From a virus (lineage: Duplodnaviria; Caudoviricetes), in IMG/VR virus record IMGVR_UViG_2974760311_000001, positions 4,022 to 68,021 of that record: DNA of 64,000 nucleotides; one strand, 5' to 3'. How positions within the stretch are numbered: position 1 is the stretch's first letter; each line of letters starts with the position of its first letter. The notes beneath the pieces are model-generated. The model saw only the letters and a program-made list of their open reading frames with translations. It was not told the origin of the DNA and did not search any database. This document shows positions 6,817 through 59,355 of this stretch, one piece after another. The position numbers and the translations under genes were made by a program.

Positions 6817-9800
6817 GTGGCTGAATACGTTGCCGCCCAAGCGTCGGTGCTTATGGTGCCGACGCTTGGGAAGGGTGCCAATAGCTTCCAGTCGAAGCTA
6901 AAAGCAGAACTAAAGAAGGTCCGCGCGCAGGTCGACGTTCAGGTTAATGCTGATACGACGGCGATGCTGGCGCAGATTAAGGCCGCTAAGGAGGCGGCTG
7001 AGCGCGACCCGATCAACCTGAAGGTGAATGCCCGCCAGGCGACGGTGGGCCTTAACGCGGTCAAGCGCAACCTGAACGACTTGAAGGATCAGGCTCGTCG
7101 CGGCCTGGTGGTGAACCTGACGGTCGCGGGCATGTCCCAGTTGACGCAGCTCGGCTTGGCTATCGCTTCGCTGAACACGTCGGTGGTCCAGTTGGGCCAG
7201 TCGATGCTTGTGCTGCCGGGCATTGTCGGTGGTTTGGCGTCGTCGGTGACGACGGCGGTGGTGGGCACGCGGGGCTTGACAGATGCGTTTCAGGCGCAGT
7301 CGAAGGCGTCTAAGAACGTGGCCGATTCGGCTCGTCAGCAGACGATGGCTAACCGCGCGGTGCGGGACTCGACGAGGGACCTTAGCAACGCGATTCGGGA
7401 CGCTAAGCGTCAGCTTGAGGACCTGAATGCGCAGCTTCGTGATGCGCCTCTTGATGAGGCCGAAGCCATGCTTAACCTGCAAGAGGCTATCGCTGAGGCT
7501 GCCGACAAGGCCGGTAAGACGGCGTTCGAGCAGCAGCGGGACCAGCTTTCGGTGGCGAAGGCTGAGAGTCAGCTCGCGGAGACGCGGCGGCGCAATCTGC
7601 GACTACAGCAGGACGTGCAGGAGGCCAACGCTAAGGGCGTTCAGGGCAATGACGCGGTGGTCGCGGCTACGGAGCGGTTGACGCAGGCGCTTGAGGATGC
7701 GGCGCGGGGCACGGACGCGATTCGGGACCTGGCCGATGCGATGGGCAACCTGTCGCCGAATGCTCAGGATTTCGTCAATAAGGTCCGCGCGCTTGGTGGC
7801 GCGTGGGGCGAGCTGCGCATGGCGGTTCAGGATCGGCTATTTGCCAATCTGGGCGACGATATTCAGGCGTTGGCGGGTAAGGGTCTGCCGACACTTCAAG
7901 AGGGCCTGACGGGCATTGCAGGGGCCATTAACGGCAACTTGCGGCAAGCGTTCACGTCACTCGGTAGCGATAACAACCTGAGTCTCCTAGAGCGGCTGTT
8001 CGGCAACACAGAGCAGGCGCAGACGCTTTTCTCGCGTGCGCTCGATCCGCTTATCAGTGGTGTGCTGCGGTTGACGGCTGCGGGTTCGGATTCGTTGCCG
8101 CGTTTGTCGGATGCGTTTGCGTCGGTGATGAACCGGTTCAACAACTTCGTCACGGCGGCTGACAATGACGGTCGTCTTGATAAGTGGATCGACGCTGGTC
8201 TTAACGCGCTTACCGATTTGGGTAACTCGCTGATCAACATTGGTTCGATCCTGAATTCGGTTCACGAGGCGTTCACCGGTACTGGCGGTAGGGGCCTGCT
8301 TGAGGTTTTGGCTGACGGTACTAAGCGTTTGGCCGATTTCCTTAAGGGCGCTGAGGGTCAGGAGAAGCTGCGGCAGTATTTCTATTCTGCTCGCGCGGAG
8401 TTCCAGAAGTGGAAGCCGACGCTGGAACAGATTCCGGGCATTATCAGGAATGTCATGGCCGCTGGTCAGGCGTGGGCTGACATGTTGTTGCCGTTCCTTA
8501 ATACGGCTGCCACGTTGCTTAAGGAGCATCCGGCTCTGGTGGCGGCGTTGCTCTACACGTATTTGACGTGGCGCACGATTCAGCCGGTTATCACGGGCAT
8601 TAACACTGCTCTGAGTGGTATGCGTACGGCGCTGGATTGGGTGAGCCGGGGCTTGGGCGACGGTAACAGTGGCGCGAACGGCAAGCTGTCGCGGTTTGCG
8701 AGCTTCATCGGTGTTGGTGGTCCGATTGCGACGGGTGTCGCGGTGGTGGCTGGCCTGCTACTCAATGAGTATGCGACGGCGCAGAACGAGGCCGCGCAGG
8801 AGACGGAGTACCACGCGAACATGGTCAATCAGCTCCGTTCGGAGATTGATGACCTGACGGGTTCGCTTACCACGGGTGGCGCGATTCGCCAGTTGCAGCG
8901 GTTGAGTAATTGGCAGAACTTCAACCTGACTGGTGATCCGTCGTTCAACATTCCGGAGATTGCCGACAATTTGGGCATTAACCGGGCGAAGTACCAGCAG
9001 GCGTTGAATCCGACGCAGCAGGCGGCGCGTAATGAGGTCGAGGGCGATCTTAAGAAAATCCTCCGTGAGGAATTGCTTAAGCCGGGGAACATGTACTCGG
9101 AGAACACCGAGGGTTTCCGTGAGGCTCTGGACAAGGCGAAGATTTCGATTGACGATCTTGTCGAGGCTCTAGGCGGCACCGACCAGTCTGCGGTTAAGAA
9201 GTACGAAGAGGCGTTCGGTTTCGGCGGTCCTGGCTGGGTTTCGATGAAGAACTCGGGCACGCTGATCCGTAAGCCTCCGACGCTTTCGGACGTGTTGCAG
9301 GGTTACGACACGAAGTTGCCGTTTGATCTGGGCGATTTGCCTGCTCTTAGCCCTCGTGGTTTGGAGGCCGCTAACGCTCTTAGGGTGCTGCATGACGAGT
9401 CGTCTACCGCTTTGCGGGTGGGTGAGGATACTCGCCGTAACAACGAAGCGGTGTTGGGCAAGGCTGAGGTTAGGCCGGATTCGCCGCTGGCGCGTTTGGG
9501 TTCACCGAGGGCGTTCTGGAATTCCAACGGCGATGGTGGCGCGACGGTCGAGGTTGATGCTTCGCAGGTTCCTCCGGAACTGATCGAAGCTGTCGGCGGC
9601 GAGCACAACATTGAGCGGCTGGCTGATCGGCGTACAAAGATCAAGTTGCCCAAGGAGGTCGCGGAAAAGTACCTGTATCGGCGCGCTGGCGGCGGCTTGA
9701 TGGACGGTCCTGGCACGGGGCGTTCTGACTCGATTCTGGCGATGTTGTCGACGGGTGAGTTTGTGACTCGCGCTGATTCGGTGGCTAAGTACGGTCGGGA

Positions 9801-24012: not shown

Positions 24013-24213
24013 TTTGGCGGGTGGGTACTTGCCGTATATGCCGCGCTCGTCCCCAGCCAGCACGAGCCGGTGCTCCCGGTCGGCCTGCGTGGCAATGGCG
24101 CGCATTTCCTTGGCCCTTATTGCTGCCTGATCGGCCCTGTAGCCGACGATCTGCTTCCCCATGACCCACAGGAGCCAGGAGACGGCTCCGATGAGCACCA
24201 CAGCCTCAATCAT
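24007..24213 (-). CDS. Small membrane protein
   Basis: 68 aa, N-terminal TM helix; ATGA overlap with upstream gene. Confidence 0.65.
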   Translation of the reverse strand: MIEAVVLIGAVSWLLWVMGKQIVGYRADQAAIRAKEMRAIATQADREHRLVLAGDERGIYGKYPPAKL

Positions 24214-24962
24214 GCCGCCAGTTTATCTCTCAAGATCGGATTCCACCCCCACAGCTCCCGATGCACGCCGACGAGCCACGCGTTGATGCGCTCCATGTCG
24301 GGACCGTCAGGCAGGGTGGTCCTCTGCTCGGCGGCTTGGATGAGTGACCGCCAGTGCTCGATTTCCCTGAGCACTTCAGCTTCGGGGACCTCACCGTTAC
24401 GGATGCTTAGCAGATAGCCACGTTCCTGCTCGATCATGGGCATGACCATGTTGTGCGTGATGAGCATTTCGTGGCCCTGCATCAGCAAACGCACTGCGTG
24501 GAATGCGGCCTTGGTGTCGTAGCCGTGCTTAGCGATCAGCTCTGGCCGGTTGGTGCGTGGGGCCTTCTTGCCAGTGAGGCGCGCGTACATGGAGTCCGCG
24601 TATCCCATGTGCCGCGCGGCTAGGCGCTTAGACAGGAACATCCGCGCGTTGGCTTGTAGCCCGATCATGTCGGGGGAGCGGAGGTTTGGGGTGAACAACA
24701 GTGTCATGACTGTCGGGTTGCCTTGGCACACGAGGCTCACGTACTTGCGAAGGCCATAAAACTGGGTCTCAGAGTCGCCAGGCTCGCTCTTCACGCCCTC
24801 TGGCTTGTCCCGGTCGCGGATGGCCCCGGCGAGCGGCTTAAGGCCAATTAGCGCTTCTGGCGGGTCTGCGTATATCCCGATGTAATCATGATCAGAATCT
24901 TCGCGGTTTAGCCCGTGGGCGAATGATCCGATTTCGCCAATGATCAGCGGCTGCATGTCCAT
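24210..24962 (-). CDS. Pol-beta-fold nucleotidyltransferase (RlaP / Nuc-transf-like)
   Basis: GSFAHGL..DSDHDYIGIY (GS..DxD) and YDTKAAFHAVRLL motifs. Confidence 0.8.
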   Translation of the reverse strand: MDMQPLIIGEIGSFAHGLNREDSDHDYIGIYADPPEALIGLKPLAGAIRDRDKPEGVKSEPGDSETQFYGLRKYVSLVCQGNPTVMTLLFTPNLRSPDMIGLQANARMFLSKRLAARHMGYADSMYARLTGKKAPRTNRPELIAKHGYDTKAAFHAVRLLMQGHEMLITHNMVMPMIEQERGYLLSIRNGEVPEAEVLREIEHWRSLIQAAEQRTTLPDGPDMERINAWLVGVHRELWGWNPILRDKLAA

Positions 24963-24976
24963 GTGTCCCCCTAAAT

Positions 24977-25036
24977 GAAACTGGCCCCTACGCCAGGTGC
25001 TCCCCTCCCAAAGAGCACCGGCCAGGGGCCAGTTTC
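24977..25036 (-). other. Hairpin between lsr2 and nucleotidyltransferase
   Basis: GAAACTGGCCCCT / AGGGGCCAGTTTC with inner GGTGCTC / GAGCACC. Confidence 0.6.
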
Positions 25037-25046
25037 GGTCTGTGCG

Positions 25047-25475
25047 TTAGGACTGCGCTGCGGAGAACTCAGGCGCGTCCTTGCGCGGTGCAGCTTTCTT
25101 AGCTGCCGGTTTCTTCTCTGGCTCAGCTTCGCTGGTCGCGGCTTTCCAGGCCCGCACGACTTCTGCGGAGACCCGGCCCTTGTCGCTGATGTCGAAGCCA
25201 TTAGCCCTGGCCCACTGCCGGATTTCCGCGAGCGGAAGACCCGGCTCCCCACCGGAGTGGGTGATGCGGTTAGTGCGACGACGCACACGCTCCGCACGAC
25301 CGACACGCGTGGCAACCTCAAGCCACTTCGCCAAGTCTTTGTCGAACGCTTTCGCGTTCTTATCCGAGAGGTCGAGGTGGTACTCGACTCCATCGACGGC
25401 GAAGTTGCGTTCGGTGCTGGCTTCCAGCTCCGGCTCAAGATCGTCAAACAACGTGACGGTTACGCGCTTACCCAT
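25047..25475 (-). CDS. lsr2: Lsr2-like nucleoid-associated protein
   Basis: MGKRVTVTLFDDL..FAVDGVEYHLDLSDKNA and EIRQWARANGFDISDKGRVSAEV motifs. Confidence 0.95.
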   Translation of the reverse strand: MGKRVTVTLFDDLEPELEASTERNFAVDGVEYHLDLSDKNAKAFDKDLAKWLEVATRVGRAERVRRRTNRITHSGGEPGLPLAEIRQWARANGFDISDKGRVSAEVVRAWKAATSEAEPEKKPAAKKAAPRKDAPEFSAAQS

Positions 25476-25716
25476 CGCTTTCGTATCCCTTCAAGTGCGG
25501 TTGCGTACTTGCTGTGTACGACATTAAGCGCTTGAGTTCGCTGATGTCAACTGAAACGCCGTCAACTTCTGGATTTCCTCGATAGCGCATACATCCGCAG
25601 CGCTGAGCTTTCCGCTTTCGTCCGCGATAGTGGCAGCGCCATCCGACGCCTCTGTCTGGGCTATGGCAAATCCTGCCGTGACCACAGGTTTCGCAGAGAG
25701 GCCAACGGATTCTCAC
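25468..25716 (-). CDS. Hypothetical Cys/His-rich protein
   Basis: CETCGHGRICH..C..C..C; overlaps the lsr2 start. Confidence 0.5.
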   Translation of the reverse strand: MRIRWPLCETCGHGRICHSPDRGVGWRCHYRGRKRKAQRCGCMRYRGNPEVDGVSVDISELKRLMSYTASTQPHLKGYESDG

Positions 25717-26041
25717 GCGCGCGTGTCTCCTACCGTACTTACGTAACCACTAGTTCTCTTGACTGTTTACCTACTCAACGTGACTCTCGTTGAGCGAGTG
25801 CTTGAAGGATTTCTTTTTCTCTTCACTCAACCCCCTGCCCAAGGTGACGTTTGGAGGTTTGTGTCGTTGCCTTGGTCGGGGACGGTACTAGCGCCCCCCC
25901 TACCCCCCCAGTTTTCGGGTCGACCCCGAAAAATCGAAATGTTAGAAACATTCTCATAGTTCTCTTACTGTTTGAGGGTGTCTGAAACATGTCCGCAGGT
26001 GAGGCCCTTAACCCGTTCTGACCAGCCACGATCTGATTCTT

Positions 26042-26251
26042 AGTTGACACCTGTGTTGACACTTGACAGAGAAAACCGCTCTGACCAGGCATTTCTTAGA
26101 AGAGTCTGAGGATTAAAAGTCCCCAGAGGCACCCCCCTGCACATGCTGGTGTAGTCTGTCAAACATCCAGCTAACGAGGGTTTAAGTCTCGTATGGCACG
26201 CTGTGGCACTGCTGGATAGTTGACACCTTAGTTGACACCTAGTTGACACCT
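26042..26251. other. attP: attP region with integrase arm-type repeats and candidate core
   Basis: AGTTGACACCT at 26042, 26218, 26230, 26241 and TGTTGACAC at 26054; between them CTGAGGA-TTAAAAG-TCCCCAG (26106-26126), an imperfect inverted repeat with 7-bp spacer; directly upstream of integrase. Confidence 0.75.
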
Positions 26252-26264
26252 GGGAGGGTGCGGA

Positions 26265-27572
26265 GTGGCCGAGACGGACTCGAAAATTAAGAGACGCCTA
26301 AGGGGTGATGGGGGTCTCACCTACGACAAATCGCGGGGTCTCTACATCGGCATCGTGTGGGTGGTTGGACCGGACGGAAAACGTCGCCAGAAGCGCGTCT
26401 CAAGCCGCAAAGAGAGCGAGGCTCTGCGGAAGCTGAACAAGCTCCGCGCCGACGTGCTCGCGGGCAAGATCGCCACGACGCCGGGGAAGGTCAAGACGGT
26501 CGGCGAATGGCTGGACTACTGGCTCACCGTCAAAAAGAGCGAGTGCCGCCCCAGCACGTACGAGTCCTACGAAGGCTCCGCGCGGCTATACCTCAAGCCG
26601 CACCTGGGACACATCCGGCTCGACAAGCTCACAACGCCTCAGGTGCGCGACATGCTGACGAAAGTGCGCGACGGGGGTGGGAACACCAAGGCGTCCACGC
26701 GAAACCCTCAGAAGGCGTATCAGGCCCTAAACAACGCCATGAAACTCGCCGTGGACGAAGGCGTGTTGGACCGCAACCCGGTGGCCCCGATCAAAAAGCC
26801 GGGGCACGTGAAGCAACAACGCGGCGCATTCGAGACGAGCGCTGCGGTTCACCTGCTTAAGACGGCGGCAGCTCTCGACGACGAGGACAACCCTAAGCGG
26901 CCTAAGCTCGCTTCGCATTGGGCGGCGGCTTTCATGACCGGCGCGCGGCAAGCCGAACTGCTTGGTCTGGAATGGGACCGGGTTGATTTCGACCGGGGCG
27001 TGCTCGACATCTCCTGGCAGTTGCAACGGCTGAAGTATGCGCACGGCTGTGGGCTTAATAGCGACGGTGAACCTAAGTGTGGTCGGCAGCGTGTCGGTTA
27101 CTGCCCTGAGCGCAAGTTTGTCCCACCGCCAGGGTTCGAGTACCGGCACTGCCATCGGTCCCTGTTTTGGACGCGACCTAAGTCGTTAGCGGGGGAGCGG
27201 ACGGTGCCAATGGCTCCGCTGCTTCTGGAATCGCTTAAGGTGCATAAGCGGCTGGATAAGGACCCGAATCCGCATAACCTGGTGTGGCATCACCGGGACG
27301 GCAGGCCGATCAGCCAGGAGGACGATAACGAGCATTGGAATCGGCTTGTCGCGGCGGCGGGTATCGAGAAGCGTCCGCGTGAGGTTGTATTGCATGAGGC
27401 GCGCAATACGGCGGCGACGATGCTCTTAGAGTCTGGTATCGACGCTAAGGTCATTCAGACGATCTTGGGGCACGCGTCGATCTTGCAGACACGGGACTAT
27501 CAGCGGGTGAGTCTGGAATTGAGTAAGAGCGCCGTAAGCAATGCTTTCGACGCTCTGTTACCCAGTGTTTAG
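26265..27572 (+). CDS. int: Tyrosine integrase
   Basis: TGARQAELLGL (R), LHEARNT (HxxR), ILGH..Y; N-terminal arm-binding and SAM-like domains. Confidence 0.95.
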   Translation: MAETDSKIKRRLRGDGGLTYDKSRGLYIGIVWVVGPDGKRRQKRVSSRKESEALRKLNKLRADVLAGKIATTPGKVKTVGEWLDYWLTVKKSECRPSTYESYEGSARLYLKPHLGHIRLDKLTTPQVRDMLTKVRDGGGNTKASTRNPQKAYQALNNAMKLAVDEGVLDRNPVAPIKKPGHVKQQRGAFETSAAVHLLKTAAALDDEDNPKRPKLASHWAAAFMTGARQAELLGLEWDRVDFDRGVLDISWQLQRLKYAHGCGLNSDGEPKCGRQRVGYCPERKFVPPPGFEYRHCHRSLFWTRPKSLAGERTVPMAPLLLESLKVHKRLDKDPNPHNLVWHHRDGRPISQEDDNEHWNRLVAAAGIEKRPREVVLHEARNTAATMLLESGIDAKVIQTILGHASILQTRDYQRVSLELSKSAVSNAFDALLPSV

Positions 27573-56610: not shown

Positions 56611-56684
56611 GGTCCTGTAGGCAAATTGGCAAAGCCGCGTCACTCAAAATGACGTGTCTGTGGGTTCGAGTCCCACCGGGACTA
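56611..56684 (+). tRNA. tRNA-Leu(CAA)
   Basis: GGTCCTG/CGGGACT acceptor; loop CT-CAA-AA; T loop TTCGAGT; short variable arm. Confidence 0.9.
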
Positions 56685-56685
56685 C

Positions 56686-56759
56686 GCTGCCTTAGCTCAG
56701 ATGGCTAGAGCGCCGCTCTCGTAAAGCGGAGGTCGCGGGTTCGAGGCCCGCAGGCAGCT
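56686..56759 (+). tRNA. tRNA-Thr(CGT)
   Basis: GCTGCCT/AGGCAGC; CCGCT-CTCGTAA-AGCGG. Confidence 0.92.
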
Positions 56760-56789
56760 CGTAAGTACAACTGAATATTGGGAGTTTTG

Positions 56790-56954
56790 ATGACTGAAGT
56801 TGATCCGATCTGGGCGGCGAAGCAAGAGCTGGGTGTGATCCAGAAGCTTGATGAGCGTGAGTGGCCGAAGGTGCCTGCTCCGGCTCCTGTTGAGGTCGAC
56901 GAGGATAAGCCTAAGCGTGGCCGTCCTAAGGCCCCTGAGGTTGATGAGAGTTAA
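56790..56954 (+). CDS. Small hypothetical protein inside tRNA cluster
   Basis: 54 aa (MTEVDPIWAAKQELG..PKRGRPK..), GGGAG RBS, preceded by ACAACTGAATA. Confidence 0.6.
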   Translation: MTEVDPIWAAKQELGVIQKLDEREWPKVPAPAPVEVDEDKPKRGRPKAPEVDES

Positions 56955-57046
56955 GGGATTACCCCGCTTCACGGCGTGTGGCCCCTTCGGTTAGTCCACC
57001 GACTGAACGGCCCGCAGGAGGGTAGCTGCGTTATCAAGCGGCCTTT

Positions 57047-57119
57047 GCCTCGTTAGCTCAGTTGGTAGAGCTGCCGACTCTTAATCGGTAGGTCGCAGGT
57101 TCAAGTCCTGCACGGGGTA
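57047..57119 (+). tRNA. tRNA-Lys(CTT)
   Basis: GCCTCGT/ACGGGGT; loop CT-CTT-AA. Confidence 0.92.
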
Positions 57120-57130
57120 CTCATTGCTAA

Positions 57131-57213
57131 GCGTCGGAGGTACCTGTTGGTTTGGTACACCTGCCTGTAAAGCAGGCGCTTCGGCTTCGGGGGTTCGATT
57201 CCCTCCCGGCGTA
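57131..57213 (+). tRNA. tRNA-Tyr(GTA)
   Basis: CCTGC-CTGTAAA-GCAGG; long variable arm; GGGGG-TTCGATT-CCCTC. Confidence 0.88.
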
Positions 57214-57223
57214 CTTAGTTCAA

Positions 57224-57296
57224 AGCTCGGTAGCTCAATTGGTAGAGCAACGGTCTCCAAAGCCGTGGGTTCCCCGTTCGAGTCGGGGCCGGGTTG
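57224..57296 (+). tRNA. tRNA-Trp(CCA)
   Basis: ACGGT-CTCCAAA-GCCGT; CCCCG-TTCGAGT-CGGGG. Confidence 0.88.
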
Positions 57297-57297
57297 C

Positions 57298-57371
57298 GGA
57301 ACTGTAGGCAAACTGGAAAAGCCGCCTGACTTAGGATCAGGTGTTTGCGAGTTCGACTCTCGCCAGTTCTA
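57298..57371 (+). tRNA. tRNA-Leu(TAG)
   Basis: GGAACTG/CAGTTCT; CCTGA-CTTAGGA-TCAGG. Confidence 0.9.
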
Positions 57372-57372
57372 C

Positions 57373-57442
57373 GCTAAGTAGCTTAATGGTAAAGCGCCCC
57401 GTTGTGGCCGGGGTGATTCCGGTTCGATTCCGGGCTTAAGCC
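57373..57442 (+). tRNA. tRNA-His(GTG), acceptor stem with 1-nt bulge
   Basis: CCCCG-TTGTGGC-CGGGG; 5' GCTAAG vs 3' CTTAAGC. Confidence 0.75.
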
Positions 57443-57444
57443 AC

Positions 57445-57533
57445 GGAAAGTAAAGCAGGCCGTGAGAGTGCCGACTGGTCTTGAAAACCAGGTGTCCCGT
57501 TAGGGGCTGGGGGGCGGGTCGCTCTGCTTTCCG
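57445..57533 (+). tRNA. tRNA-Ser(TGA) with aberrant T arm
   Basis: GGAAAGT/GCTTTCC; CTGGT-CTTGAAA-ACCAG; T loop reads GGGTC instead of TTCRANT. Confidence 0.65.
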
Positions 57534-57575
57534 CTTTAGACATACATTCACGCTGACTTACTTGGGGGGTGGTCC

Positions 57576-58283
57576 GTGTCTGAGGTTAAGAGCCTTTACG
57601 GCACGCGTTCCTCTCGCTACTGGTCGGAAATGCCGGGGAAGATGGATGTGCTTAACCTGCGCATGATCTTCCCGTCTAGCTCGCGGGAGGGCATTCCGGA
57701 TTTGCAGCGATGTGATTGGGTGCCTGATTTCCTGGGCGCTTGGCATATGCCGCGCCAGCGGGCGCGTGCTGCGCGGGAGAACGGTGCTCTGCACTTCTTT
57801 CTGGATGACTACCGCTTTGAGACGGCCTGGTCGACGCCTGAGAAGCTGTCTGACCGCGTTTTGTCGGTGGGTGCGGCTTTGGAGCCGAACTTCAGTCTGT
57901 ATTACGACATGCCGCGCGCTGCGAAGGTGTGGAATACGTACCGGACGCGTTGGTGTGGTGCCTATTGGCAGTCGCTCGGCGTGAAGGTCATTCCTACGGC
58001 CTGTTGGGCACGCTCAGACACTTTTGAGTATTGCTTTGATGGGATACCGCAGGGTGGGCCTGTTGCGCTGTCTACGTTGGGCGTGAGGGCCACTCCGGAG
58101 GACATTGAGATTTTCAATGATGGCTTGCGGGAGCTGGTGGACCGTGTTCAGCCGTCCGTGATCTTGTCGTACGGGAAGCTGCGGTATGTGCCGGATAGCG
58201 TGTCGCTGCCGGAAGTGCGGGAGTACCCGACGTTCTGGGATGTGCGCCGCGATGAGCTTAAGGCTGTCGATGGGGCGCGGTAG
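57576..58283 (+). CDS. DUF4417-like protein
   Basis: GIP.L, LHFFLDDYRFE..W, PNFSLYYDMP..WNTYRTRW.G.YWQ..G..VIPT, FDGIP, ILSYG. Confidence 0.8.
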   Translation: MSEVKSLYGTRSSRYWSEMPGKMDVLNLRMIFPSSSREGIPDLQRCDWVPDFLGAWHMPRQRARAARENGALHFFLDDYRFETAWSTPEKLSDRVLSVGAALEPNFSLYYDMPRAAKVWNTYRTRWCGAYWQSLGVKVIPTACWARSDTFEYCFDGIPQGGPVALSTLGVRATPEDIEIFNDGLRELVDRVQPSVILSYGKLRYVPDSVSLPEVREYPTFWDVRRDELKAVDGAR

Positions 58284-58614
58284 GGGCGGCGGTCCCGCTA
58301 AGTCGCGGTCTAACACGGTGACGTTGTATCACCGGACGAGTGATCCGGCTGCCGCTCAGTCGATTGTTGAGAATGGCTTCAGCCCGAAGTACCGGCCTGG
58401 CACTAGCGAGTCTTACGTTAAGGAGAACTCGCAGTATGGGTTCTTTTCGCGGGATGTGAATTCACAGGCTGGCTATGGCGAGCATGTGGTGACGGTGAAG
58501 GTGCCTAAGTCGGCGGTTGAGAAGGACCCGTGGTCGGGTGAGTATCGCGTGAAGGTTCAGGACCTTCAGAACGCTAAGTTTCGGCAGTATAAGCCGCGTA
58601 AGAAGCGTAAGTAA
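58270..58614 (+). CDS. Small ADP-ribosyltransferase-fold-like protein
   Basis: MGRGRGGG N-terminus; TLYHRT..SIVENGF..GFFS..GEY pattern. Confidence 0.55.
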   Translation: MGRGRGGGPAKSRSNTVTLYHRTSDPAAAQSIVENGFSPKYRPGTSESYVKENSQYGFFSRDVNSQAGYGEHVVTVKVPKSAVEKDPWSGEYRVKVQDLQNAKFRQYKPRKKRK

Positions 58615-58615
58615 T

Positions 58616-58689
58616 GCCGCTGTGGCCGAGTGGCTAGGCACCGGCCTGCAAAGCCGGTTAGTCCGGTTCGATTCCGGAGGGCGGCTCCA
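58616..58689 (+). tRNA. tRNA-Cys(GCA) with encoded CCA
   Basis: CCGGC-CTGCAAA-GCCGG; TCCGG-TTCGATT-CCGGA; ends TCCA. Confidence 0.9.
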
Positions 58690-58971: not shown

Positions 58972-59044
58972 TGCCCCCAGCAGGACTCGAACCTGCGACC
59001 TGTCGCTTAAAAGGCGATAGCTCTACCAACTGAGCTATAGGGGC
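58972..59044 (-). tRNA. tRNA-Lys(TTT), isolated and on the opposite strand from the cluster
   Basis: GCCCCTATAGCTCAGTTGGTAGAGCTATCGC-CTTTTAA-GCGACAGGTCGCAGGTTCGAGTCCTGCTGGGGGCA. Confidence 0.95.
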
Positions 59045-59058
59045 CTGCGGGCCTGAGT

Positions 59059-59355
59059 CTAGCAGTGCCCGCGTGCGTGGGCGTAGTCGCGCCAGCGGTG
59101 GTATTCGTGGATGTTCTCTGCGGACACGACTTCCAGCAGGGCGACGATCCGGCCTAGGCGTTCGTCGTTGTGCTCGTGGTCCTGCTTGGACAGTTCGTGT
59201 GCCTCGCGTGCGAGCCTGAGTGCGCCACGGAGCTGGTCGTCTGTGCGGCTTAGCCGGGAGCGGATGGCTTCGGCGCGGTCGGCGCTCTGTTCACGCTTGG
59301 CGTGGTCGCAGGCGCATGGCCGCGCGAGTGATGAGCAGGGGATTTGGCAGGTCAT
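59059..59355 (-). CDS. Hypothetical protein
   Basis: 98 aa, helical, N-terminal Cys cluster. Confidence 0.55.
   Translation of the reverse strand: MTCQIPCSSLARPCACDHAKREQSADRAEAIRSRLSRTDDQLRGALRLAREAHELSKQDHEHNDERLGRIVALLEVVSAENIHEYHRWRDYAHARGHC

Follow-up and report, generated by a model that had tools for sequence, protein, structure and literature searches.

We find it very probable that the phage studied here integrates into the anticodon loop of its host's only tRNA-Lys(UUU) gene without rebuilding that gene, and that it carries its own tRNA-Lys(UUU) as the replacement. The stretch of DNA that was analysed, 64,000 nucleotides in length and hereafter called the window, corresponds to bases 4022-68021 of a 68-kb virus record and is that of a Cluster L1 (LeBron-type) temperate mycobacteriophage. 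Between positions 25700 and 27600 the window displays 99.7% DNA identity to Mycobacterium phage LeBron over 1.9 kb, including the int region, and about 20 further Subcluster L1 phages are equally near over this interval, all of them with M. smegmatis mc2155 as isolation host. This mode of integration, termed tRNA-dependent lysogeny, was described by Guerrero-Bustamante and Hatfull (mBio 2024, PMC10865867), whose Table 2 lists LeBron (L1) with attB-4 as its site, a core of 17 bp, a host tRNA that is not reconstructed and a phage tRNA that is present. Since the mechanism has been published with LeBron among its examples, the inference drawn in an initial annotation of this DNA, that integration breaks the host tRNA-Lys(UUU) and that the phage copy is needed for lysogeny, is correct and not new. 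With both the mechanism and the phage group (LeBron/L1) already on record, what is provided here is a confirmation of the sequence basis, together with a natural lysogen of a relative in Mycolicibacterium sphagni as an independent example.

The attachment site and its match to the host tRNA gene

The attP ends just short of the gene for the tyrosine integrase, and the elements recognised within it are given below with their positions in the window and their strand.

26042-26251 (no strand): whole attP, made up of P arm, core and P' arm; it ends 14 bp upstream of int, and both M. sphagni prophage junctions are homologous to it
26042-26062 (+): left (P) arm, two direct arm-type sites with GTTGACAC; the motif pair is also present at the distal M. 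sphagni prophage junction
26106-26126 (-): core, an imperfect inverted repeat CTGAGGA / TCCCCAG round a 7-bp centre, read from the sequence; unique in the window
26110-26122 (-): 13-bp stretch equal to positions 29-41 of the host tRNA-Lys(UUU), from comparison with the host tRNA; the natural-lysogen junctions of the M. sphagni relative map here
26157-26171 (-): inverted, extended arm-type-like site that pairs with 26211-26225, recognised as an inverted repeat; TGTCAAAC is conserved at the equivalent spot of the M. sphagni junction
26217-26251 (+): right (P') arm, three direct arm-type sites with GTTGACAC; two homologous sites in M. sphagni
26265-27572 (+): tyrosine integrase of 435 aa, an ORF with the Pfam domains Phage_integrase, Phage_int_SAM_3 and Phage_int_M

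The integrase gene lies 139 bp downstream of the attP core. Within attP, GTTGACAC is found five times on the plus strand, at 26043 and 26055 on the left and at 26219, 26231 and 26242 on the right; outside attP there is one copy in the 64 kb, with 1.9 expected for the whole window. Between these arms the core is composed of CTGAGGA (26106-26112), TTAAAAG (26113-26119) and TCCCCAG (26120-26126), and on the minus strand it reads as a 7-bp stem round CTTTTAA, with GGA-CTTTTAA-TCC at its centre. The seven central letters, 26113-26119 on the minus strand, are the anticodon loop of tRNA-Lys(UUU), and no second copy of the central 13-mer exists in the window, even if one mismatch is tolerated (0.05 occurrences expected by chance). 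An Rfam search of 25900-26300 at E<=10 gave no tRNA-like match, and thus no tRNA half adjoins the attP core. The initial annotation had described arm repeats flanking a core, a Lys(UUU) loop on the reverse complement of CTGAGGA-TTAAAAG-TCCCCAG and the lack of either tRNA half beside it; these points are borne out, the five same-strand arm sites being those of a tyrosine-integrase attP. CTGAGGA and TCCCCAG are presumed to be the core-type Int sites that flank the overlap region, and we infer that 26110-26122 is the crossover region.

Additional repeats surround the left arm. Two 19-nt direct repeats with CTCTGACCAG, at 26010-26028 and 26073-26091, bracket the left arm sites, and the P arm of the M. 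sphagni prophage likewise contains GCTGACCAGG (L254, about 495-507); an accessory protein, e.g., an excisionase or a host factor, may bind at these repeats. Further upstream of attP, the gene calls of near-identical L1 genomes indicate two leftward genes, one for an Lsr2-like DNA-binding protein just upstream (24971-25447, minus strand) and one for an RlaP-family nucleotidyltransferase (24210-24962, minus strand).

For the host site we used an M. smegmatis-like JGI metagenome contig (L288), which was identified by primers and is not a named mc2155 record: the published M. smegmatis attB-4 R primer matches it exactly and the F primer matches with one indel. The tRNA-Lys(ttt) enclosed by the two primers is intact and precedes tRNA-Glu, Asp and Phe; its anticodon arm is ACGGA-CTTTTAA-TCCGC. 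As stated in PMC10865867, tRNA-Lys-TTT is single-copy and essential in M. smegmatis. The host sequence was obtained from three independent lines, of which the L288 contig is one. The second is provided by long attP cores, in which an identical 39-48 bp, covering tRNA-Lys(UUU) from its anticodon loop up to its 3' end, is shared by at least five unrelated M. smegmatis phage groups; the cores compared were those of Sunflower1121 and Ximenita (K6), TribleTrouble (K3), SirPhilip, IdentityCrisis, the Redi group and the 32HC group, and those of Ximenita and TribleTrouble are stated in PMC10865867 to be identical to attB-4. The third is given by the tRNA-Lys(UUU) halves of M. sphagni, which equal the L288 tRNA except for one D-loop base.

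When the core was aligned to the host tRNA-Lys(TTT) on L288, as the initial annotation had suggested, the window attP and the host were found to share GGACTTTTAATCC (26110-26122), 13 contiguous bp at tRNA positions 29-41, and a further CAG after one mismatch. A match of the core to the host anticodon stem had been assumed in that annotation, and it holds for the inner GGA/TCC and fails for the stem as a whole: with ACGGA/TCCGC as the host arm, agreement is confined to these three inner pairs, and the outer two pairs of the phage core 'stem' are phage-specific. Most L1 phages carry two host mismatches in the presumed core-type half-sites. Other forms of the host stem were also rejected, namely the phage's own GGGGA/TCCTC, on account of the host arm read on L288, and GAGGA/TCCTC, for which viral contig searches and a 37-nt probe gave no perfect phage match. 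GGGGACTTTTAATCC, a query built from the rejected GGGGA/TCCTC stem, occurs in many non-mycobacterial Actinomycetota and other bacteria, with matches in 131/301 genomes of an unrelated class, and in 1/401 genomes of the M. sphagni genus (a sample without an M. smegmatis genome); the lone match in that genus lies within a coding region, without arm sites, and was dismissed as chance.

The phage tRNA-Lys(UUU)

Three features describe the tRNA region of the window.

58972-59044 (-): phage tRNA-Lys(UUU), called by ARAGORN (lower coordinate 58970/58972) and by Infernal (71.4 bits)
56611-58689 (+): cluster of eight other tRNAs, including tRNA-Lys(CUU) at 57047-57120, called by ARAGORN
59056-59064 (-): candidate extended -10 (TGC TAGACT), read by eye, 11 nt upstream of tRNA-Lys(UUU)

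The phage tRNA-Lys(UUU) has the top Infernal score among the nine phage tRNAs, its fold energy is better than that of shuffled versions (z = -2.7), and all four stems (acceptor, D, anticodon and T) are paired in its predicted structure. It is the sole tRNA on the strand opposite to the cluster, set among leftward ORFs, and is present at >=95% identity in 23/23 L1 records. No promoter or terminator was detected in its surroundings by a scan for the sigma-70 consensus; TGC TAGACT, which overlaps the stop codon of the upstream leftward ORF, could, judging by its letters, be its extended -10. The initial annotation had placed a full tRNA-Lys(TTT) here, apart from the plus-strand cluster and with an anticodon stem different from the attP core; ARAGORN and Infernal agree on the first point, and the stem, ATCGC/GCGAC, accords with the second.

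Phage and host tRNA-Lys(UUU) are identical at 64/73 bases. Six of the nine differences fall in the anticodon stem, where four stem pairs are kept, and two more constitute a compensatory T-stem pair. Departures from the host anticodon stem were likewise seen in each of the other tRNA-Lys(ttt) genes compared, namely those of Gabriela (L2), Chaser (L4), Unicorn (K) and the M. sphagni prophage; that every rescue tRNA examined has an altered anticodon stem is a small addition to the published work. The non-L1 rescue tRNAs compared still share 11 bp with attB. The L1 phage tRNA and the attP core have just the 7-nt loop in common, and so it is a reasonable view from the sequences that the two should not recombine. 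The phage tRNA-Lys-TTT as a possible secondary attB is a matter of speculation in PMC10865867.

The window encodes nine tRNAs including a second Lys isoacceptor, and an RNA ligase and polynucleotide kinase of the T4 tRNA-Lys repair type are noted in the LeBron paper, which together lend some weight to the idea that the phage tRNA-Lys(UUU) serves lytic growth, either through codon use or by replacing nuclease-cut host tRNA-Lys, and that its pairing with the attP core is incidental. We regard this as unlikely. Its solitary position on the opposite strand, among leftward ORFs, speaks against such a role, and its anticodon loop is identical to that of the host, i.e., it bears no obvious nuclease-escape change. 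Furthermore, a short Lys(UUU) core goes together with a phage tRNA of that anticodon repeatedly, in K4, in L1-L5 and in the M. sphagni prophage, and the tRNA of Fionnbharth is reported to be dispensable for lytic growth (PMC10865867). A role restricted to lytic growth leaves the strand, the pairing with the core and the published phenotypes unexplained. Because RNA-repair genes are present, a lytic or counter-defence role is possible beside rescue, and the two roles are compatible.

Junctions in a natural lysogen, simulated junctions and core variation

A look-up by integrase identity, in which an L1 lysogen junction (attL/attR) was sought, returned free phage genomes only. The nearest non-phage integrase (P0009) is that of Mycolicibacterium sphagni, at 69% identity to the window integrase, and the element concerned is located as follows.

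M. sphagni GCA_002250655.1, contig NOZR01000003.1 (C33, 332 kb): L-like prophage of 78.6 kb, between the tRNA-Lys(ttt) 3' half at 193.2 kb and the 5' half at 271.8 kb

The gene order after int in this prophage is that of L1, with two leftward ORFs, HTH proteins and DUF6197. At the int-side junction, upstream of int, there are two GTTGACAC sites, a P'-arm-like stretch, the core and the tRNA-Lys(ttt) 3' half (minus strand), and at the distal junction, 78.6 kb downstream, two P-arm-like arm sites, the core and the 5' half of tRNA-Lys(ttt). The M. sphagni tRNA-Lys(UUU) is broken in its anticodon loop, at a position homologous to window 26113-26119, and the core shares about 12 bp with its own host. 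Nine tRNAs form a plus-strand cluster within the prophage, directly followed by a minus-strand tRNA-Lys(ttt). Among the CTTTTAA sites of the assembly (n=20), none outside the prophage lies in a tRNA, and BLAST of the host tRNA against the assembly gave no further full-length copy; the prophage tRNA-Lys(UUU) is the sole intact copy found in this draft assembly. With the host gene split and the prophage copy alone left, the M. sphagni draft genome is a natural example of the state proposed for L1.

Other elements were seen at, or resembling, the same tRNA gene. Beside the L-like prophage, at C33:186087-193240, lies an integrative element of about 7 kb with genes for a 391-aa integrase, HTH, DUF2742 and AAA_25. 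It is bracketed by direct repeats of 41 bp that correspond to the tRNA-Lys 3' half, as in the canonical mode in which the tRNA is rebuilt, so that one M. sphagni tRNA gene has been used both canonically and by breakage. Isolated fragments of the tRNA-Lys(UUU) anticodon arm occur outside tRNA genes at C9:4034-4064 (31 bp) and C10:106499-106524 (26 bp), and other elements could have left them as remnants or use them for attachment; the C9 fragment was considered as the missing tRNA half and rejected, as its 31 bp run from the anticodon arm to the T stem. On a separate JGI contig, Ga0182740_1000174 (L287, 105 kb), an M. smegmatis-like attB-4 locus near 8462 is identical to the intact locus of L288 for 566 bp and diverges within the tRNA-Lys(TTT) anticodon loop into prophage-like DNA, which has partial 93-96% matches to Cluster I phages. 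Two GTTGATT repeats adjoin this junction, ARAGORN called no tRNA there, and the contig looks like another natural insertion that breaks tRNA-Lys(TTT).

For the window itself, attP was joined in silico to the host tRNA at the anticodon loop. No tRNA was called at the distal simulated junction, and the int-side simulated junction gave a poor ARAGORN tRNA-Lys call. As ARAGORN also called a tRNA-Lys at the real M. sphagni junction, it might be argued that the int-side junction forms a usable hybrid tRNA, from a phage-derived 5' part and the host 3' half, which would leave the phage tRNA unneeded. This is very improbable, as in the simulated hybrid the acceptor stem contains two mismatches, the D stem is 3 bp long, the T arm is displaced and the anticodon stem includes a G-G mismatch, and the M. 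sphagni int-side hybrid scores 27.9 bits, below the Rfam cut-off of 29 and far from the 71 bits of the phage tRNA; on these grounds the ARAGORN calls at the hybrid junctions were rejected as functional tRNAs. Additionally, attP-int plasmids of Gabriela (L2), Chaser (L4) and Baudelaire (L5) are reported to transform only with the phage tRNA-Lys-TTT and to fail without it (PMC10865867). A canonical tRNA-rebuilding attP has a longer identity with its target: the shared cores of Ximenita, Sunflower1121 and TribleTrouble span 45-48 bp, whereas in the window identity stops at 13 bp, with 3 more after one mismatch.

Variation in the core was compared across 20 L1 genomes, the window included, and in 17 of them the identity to the host is 13 bp. 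The LeBron attP differs from the window by two adjacent base changes, at tRNA positions 27-28, and these give it 17 contiguous bp of host identity (positions 25-41), exactly the figure tabulated for it in PMC10865867. In Silverleaf and the Logan assembly of SRR13670712 it is position 42 that carries the host base, by which 17 bp is reached on the other side. A core of 13 bp in 17/20 genomes, with the 17 bp of LeBron as an exception, is another small addition to the published work. All three variant positions (27, 28 and 42) carry host tRNA bases; because in each variant the host base lies to one side of the core, they can be read as possible footprints of past exchange with attB, and recombination with other phages or selection may also account for them. 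It is conceivable, and on balance we doubt it, that both of two things are true, namely that rescue tRNAs have been systematically recoded in the anticodon stem, which would keep the phage's own integrase from taking them for an attB, and that the core variants are attB footprints.

The short identity, only 13 bp, and the lack of an L1 lysogen junction on record in the collections searched would suit an anticodon-arm likeness that is a by-product of the palindromic core, with L1 integrating elsewhere or never, but there is little chance of this when the core aligns base for base with the M. sphagni crossover, whose junctions are tRNA-Lys halves, when the three variant positions all hold host tRNA bases, and when related Cluster K integrases use the same tRNA.

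Proposed mechanism and comparison with known systems

We propose the following mechanism for breakage of the host tRNA gene and its rescue by the phage. The integrase would bind the GTTGACAC arm sites and the inverted core half-sites, and strand exchange would take place within the 13 bp shared with the single M. smegmatis tRNA-Lys(UUU) gene (attB-4), at the anticodon loop. As the attP has neither a 3' nor a 5' tRNA half, the prophage would split the host gene and neither junction would encode a working tRNA. The phage tRNA-Lys(UUU), transcribed leftward and apart from the rightward cluster, would then supply the missing decoder of AAA codons, and should for that reason be required for viable lysogens and not for lytic growth. 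For L1, we infer integration at attB-4, expression of the tRNA from the prophage and an essential role for it in lysogeny.

The marks of tRNA-dependent lysogeny can be followed through the window. An integrase with an adjacent attP is evident from the Pfam domains, the five arm sites and the unique palindromic core; the overlap of attB with a host tRNA is given by the sequence match between the core and positions 29-41 of the attB-4 tRNA-Lys(ttt). The core is short and does not rebuild the tRNA, with 13 bp shared, nothing tRNA-like in attP and simulated junctions that yield either no tRNA or a defective one, and the phage tRNA-Lys(ttt) matches the anticodon of the targeted host tRNA. What the initial annotation predicted at this level, a core equal to the anticodon arm, no credible junction tRNA and a phage tRNA of the same anticodon, holds throughout. 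Its statement that some mycobacteriophages disrupt a host tRNA and complement it is in agreement with PMC10865867, where LeBron is listed, and its reading of tRNA breakage with phage complementation is supported.

The closest systems are those of Cluster L. As described in PMC10865867, LeBron (L1), Gabriela (L2), Whirlwind (L3), Chaser (L4) and Baudelaire (L5) resemble the window in their use of attB-4, in a short, non-rebuilding core and in a leftward tRNA-Lys-TTT set apart from a rightward cluster, Lys-TTT being the one leftward tRNA in most Cluster L phages; LeBron and the window differ in sharing 17 and 13 bp, respectively, with the host. The bench tests presented there cover K4, L2, L4 and L5 and not L1, which is assigned by sequence. 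Fionnbharth (K4), the prototype in which the mechanism was worked out by experiment, is reported to integrate at attB-4 with a 10-bp core, and deletion of its tRNA results in clear plaques; Rumpelstiltskin, which lacks the tRNA, likewise forms clear plaques (PMC10865867). In common with the window, Fionnbharth has an integrase of the same family (48% identical to LeBron Int according to the same source), the attB-4 site and a phage tRNA-Lys-TTT, which in Fionnbharth is required for lysogeny. Unlike the window, its backbone is unrelated and its single tRNA overlaps a protein gene on the opposite strand, whereas the window tRNA sits beside a nine-tRNA region.

Ximenita and Sunflower1121 (K6), TribleTrouble (K3) and Boilgate (K8) possess related integrases, target the same host tRNA and have a crossover that starts from the anticodon loop. 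These phages rebuild the tRNA, however, and the window attP is without the tRNA half by which they do so. The M. sphagni prophage shares with the window its arm motif, the gene order after int and a minus-strand tRNA-Lys(UUU), in addition to the related integrase; it differs in a core that is adapted to its own host and in the small second integrative element adjacent to it.

Dependence of lysogeny on a phage-borne tRNA assigns a clear function to one class of phage tRNA genes, and it explains why a temperate phage that loses its tRNA can become a clear-plaque phage. The mechanism is also relevant to the building of integration vectors and of engineered lytic derivatives. If rescue-tRNA stems have indeed been recoded and the core variants are indeed attB footprints, then core and rescue tRNA would co-evolve under pressure from the integrase.
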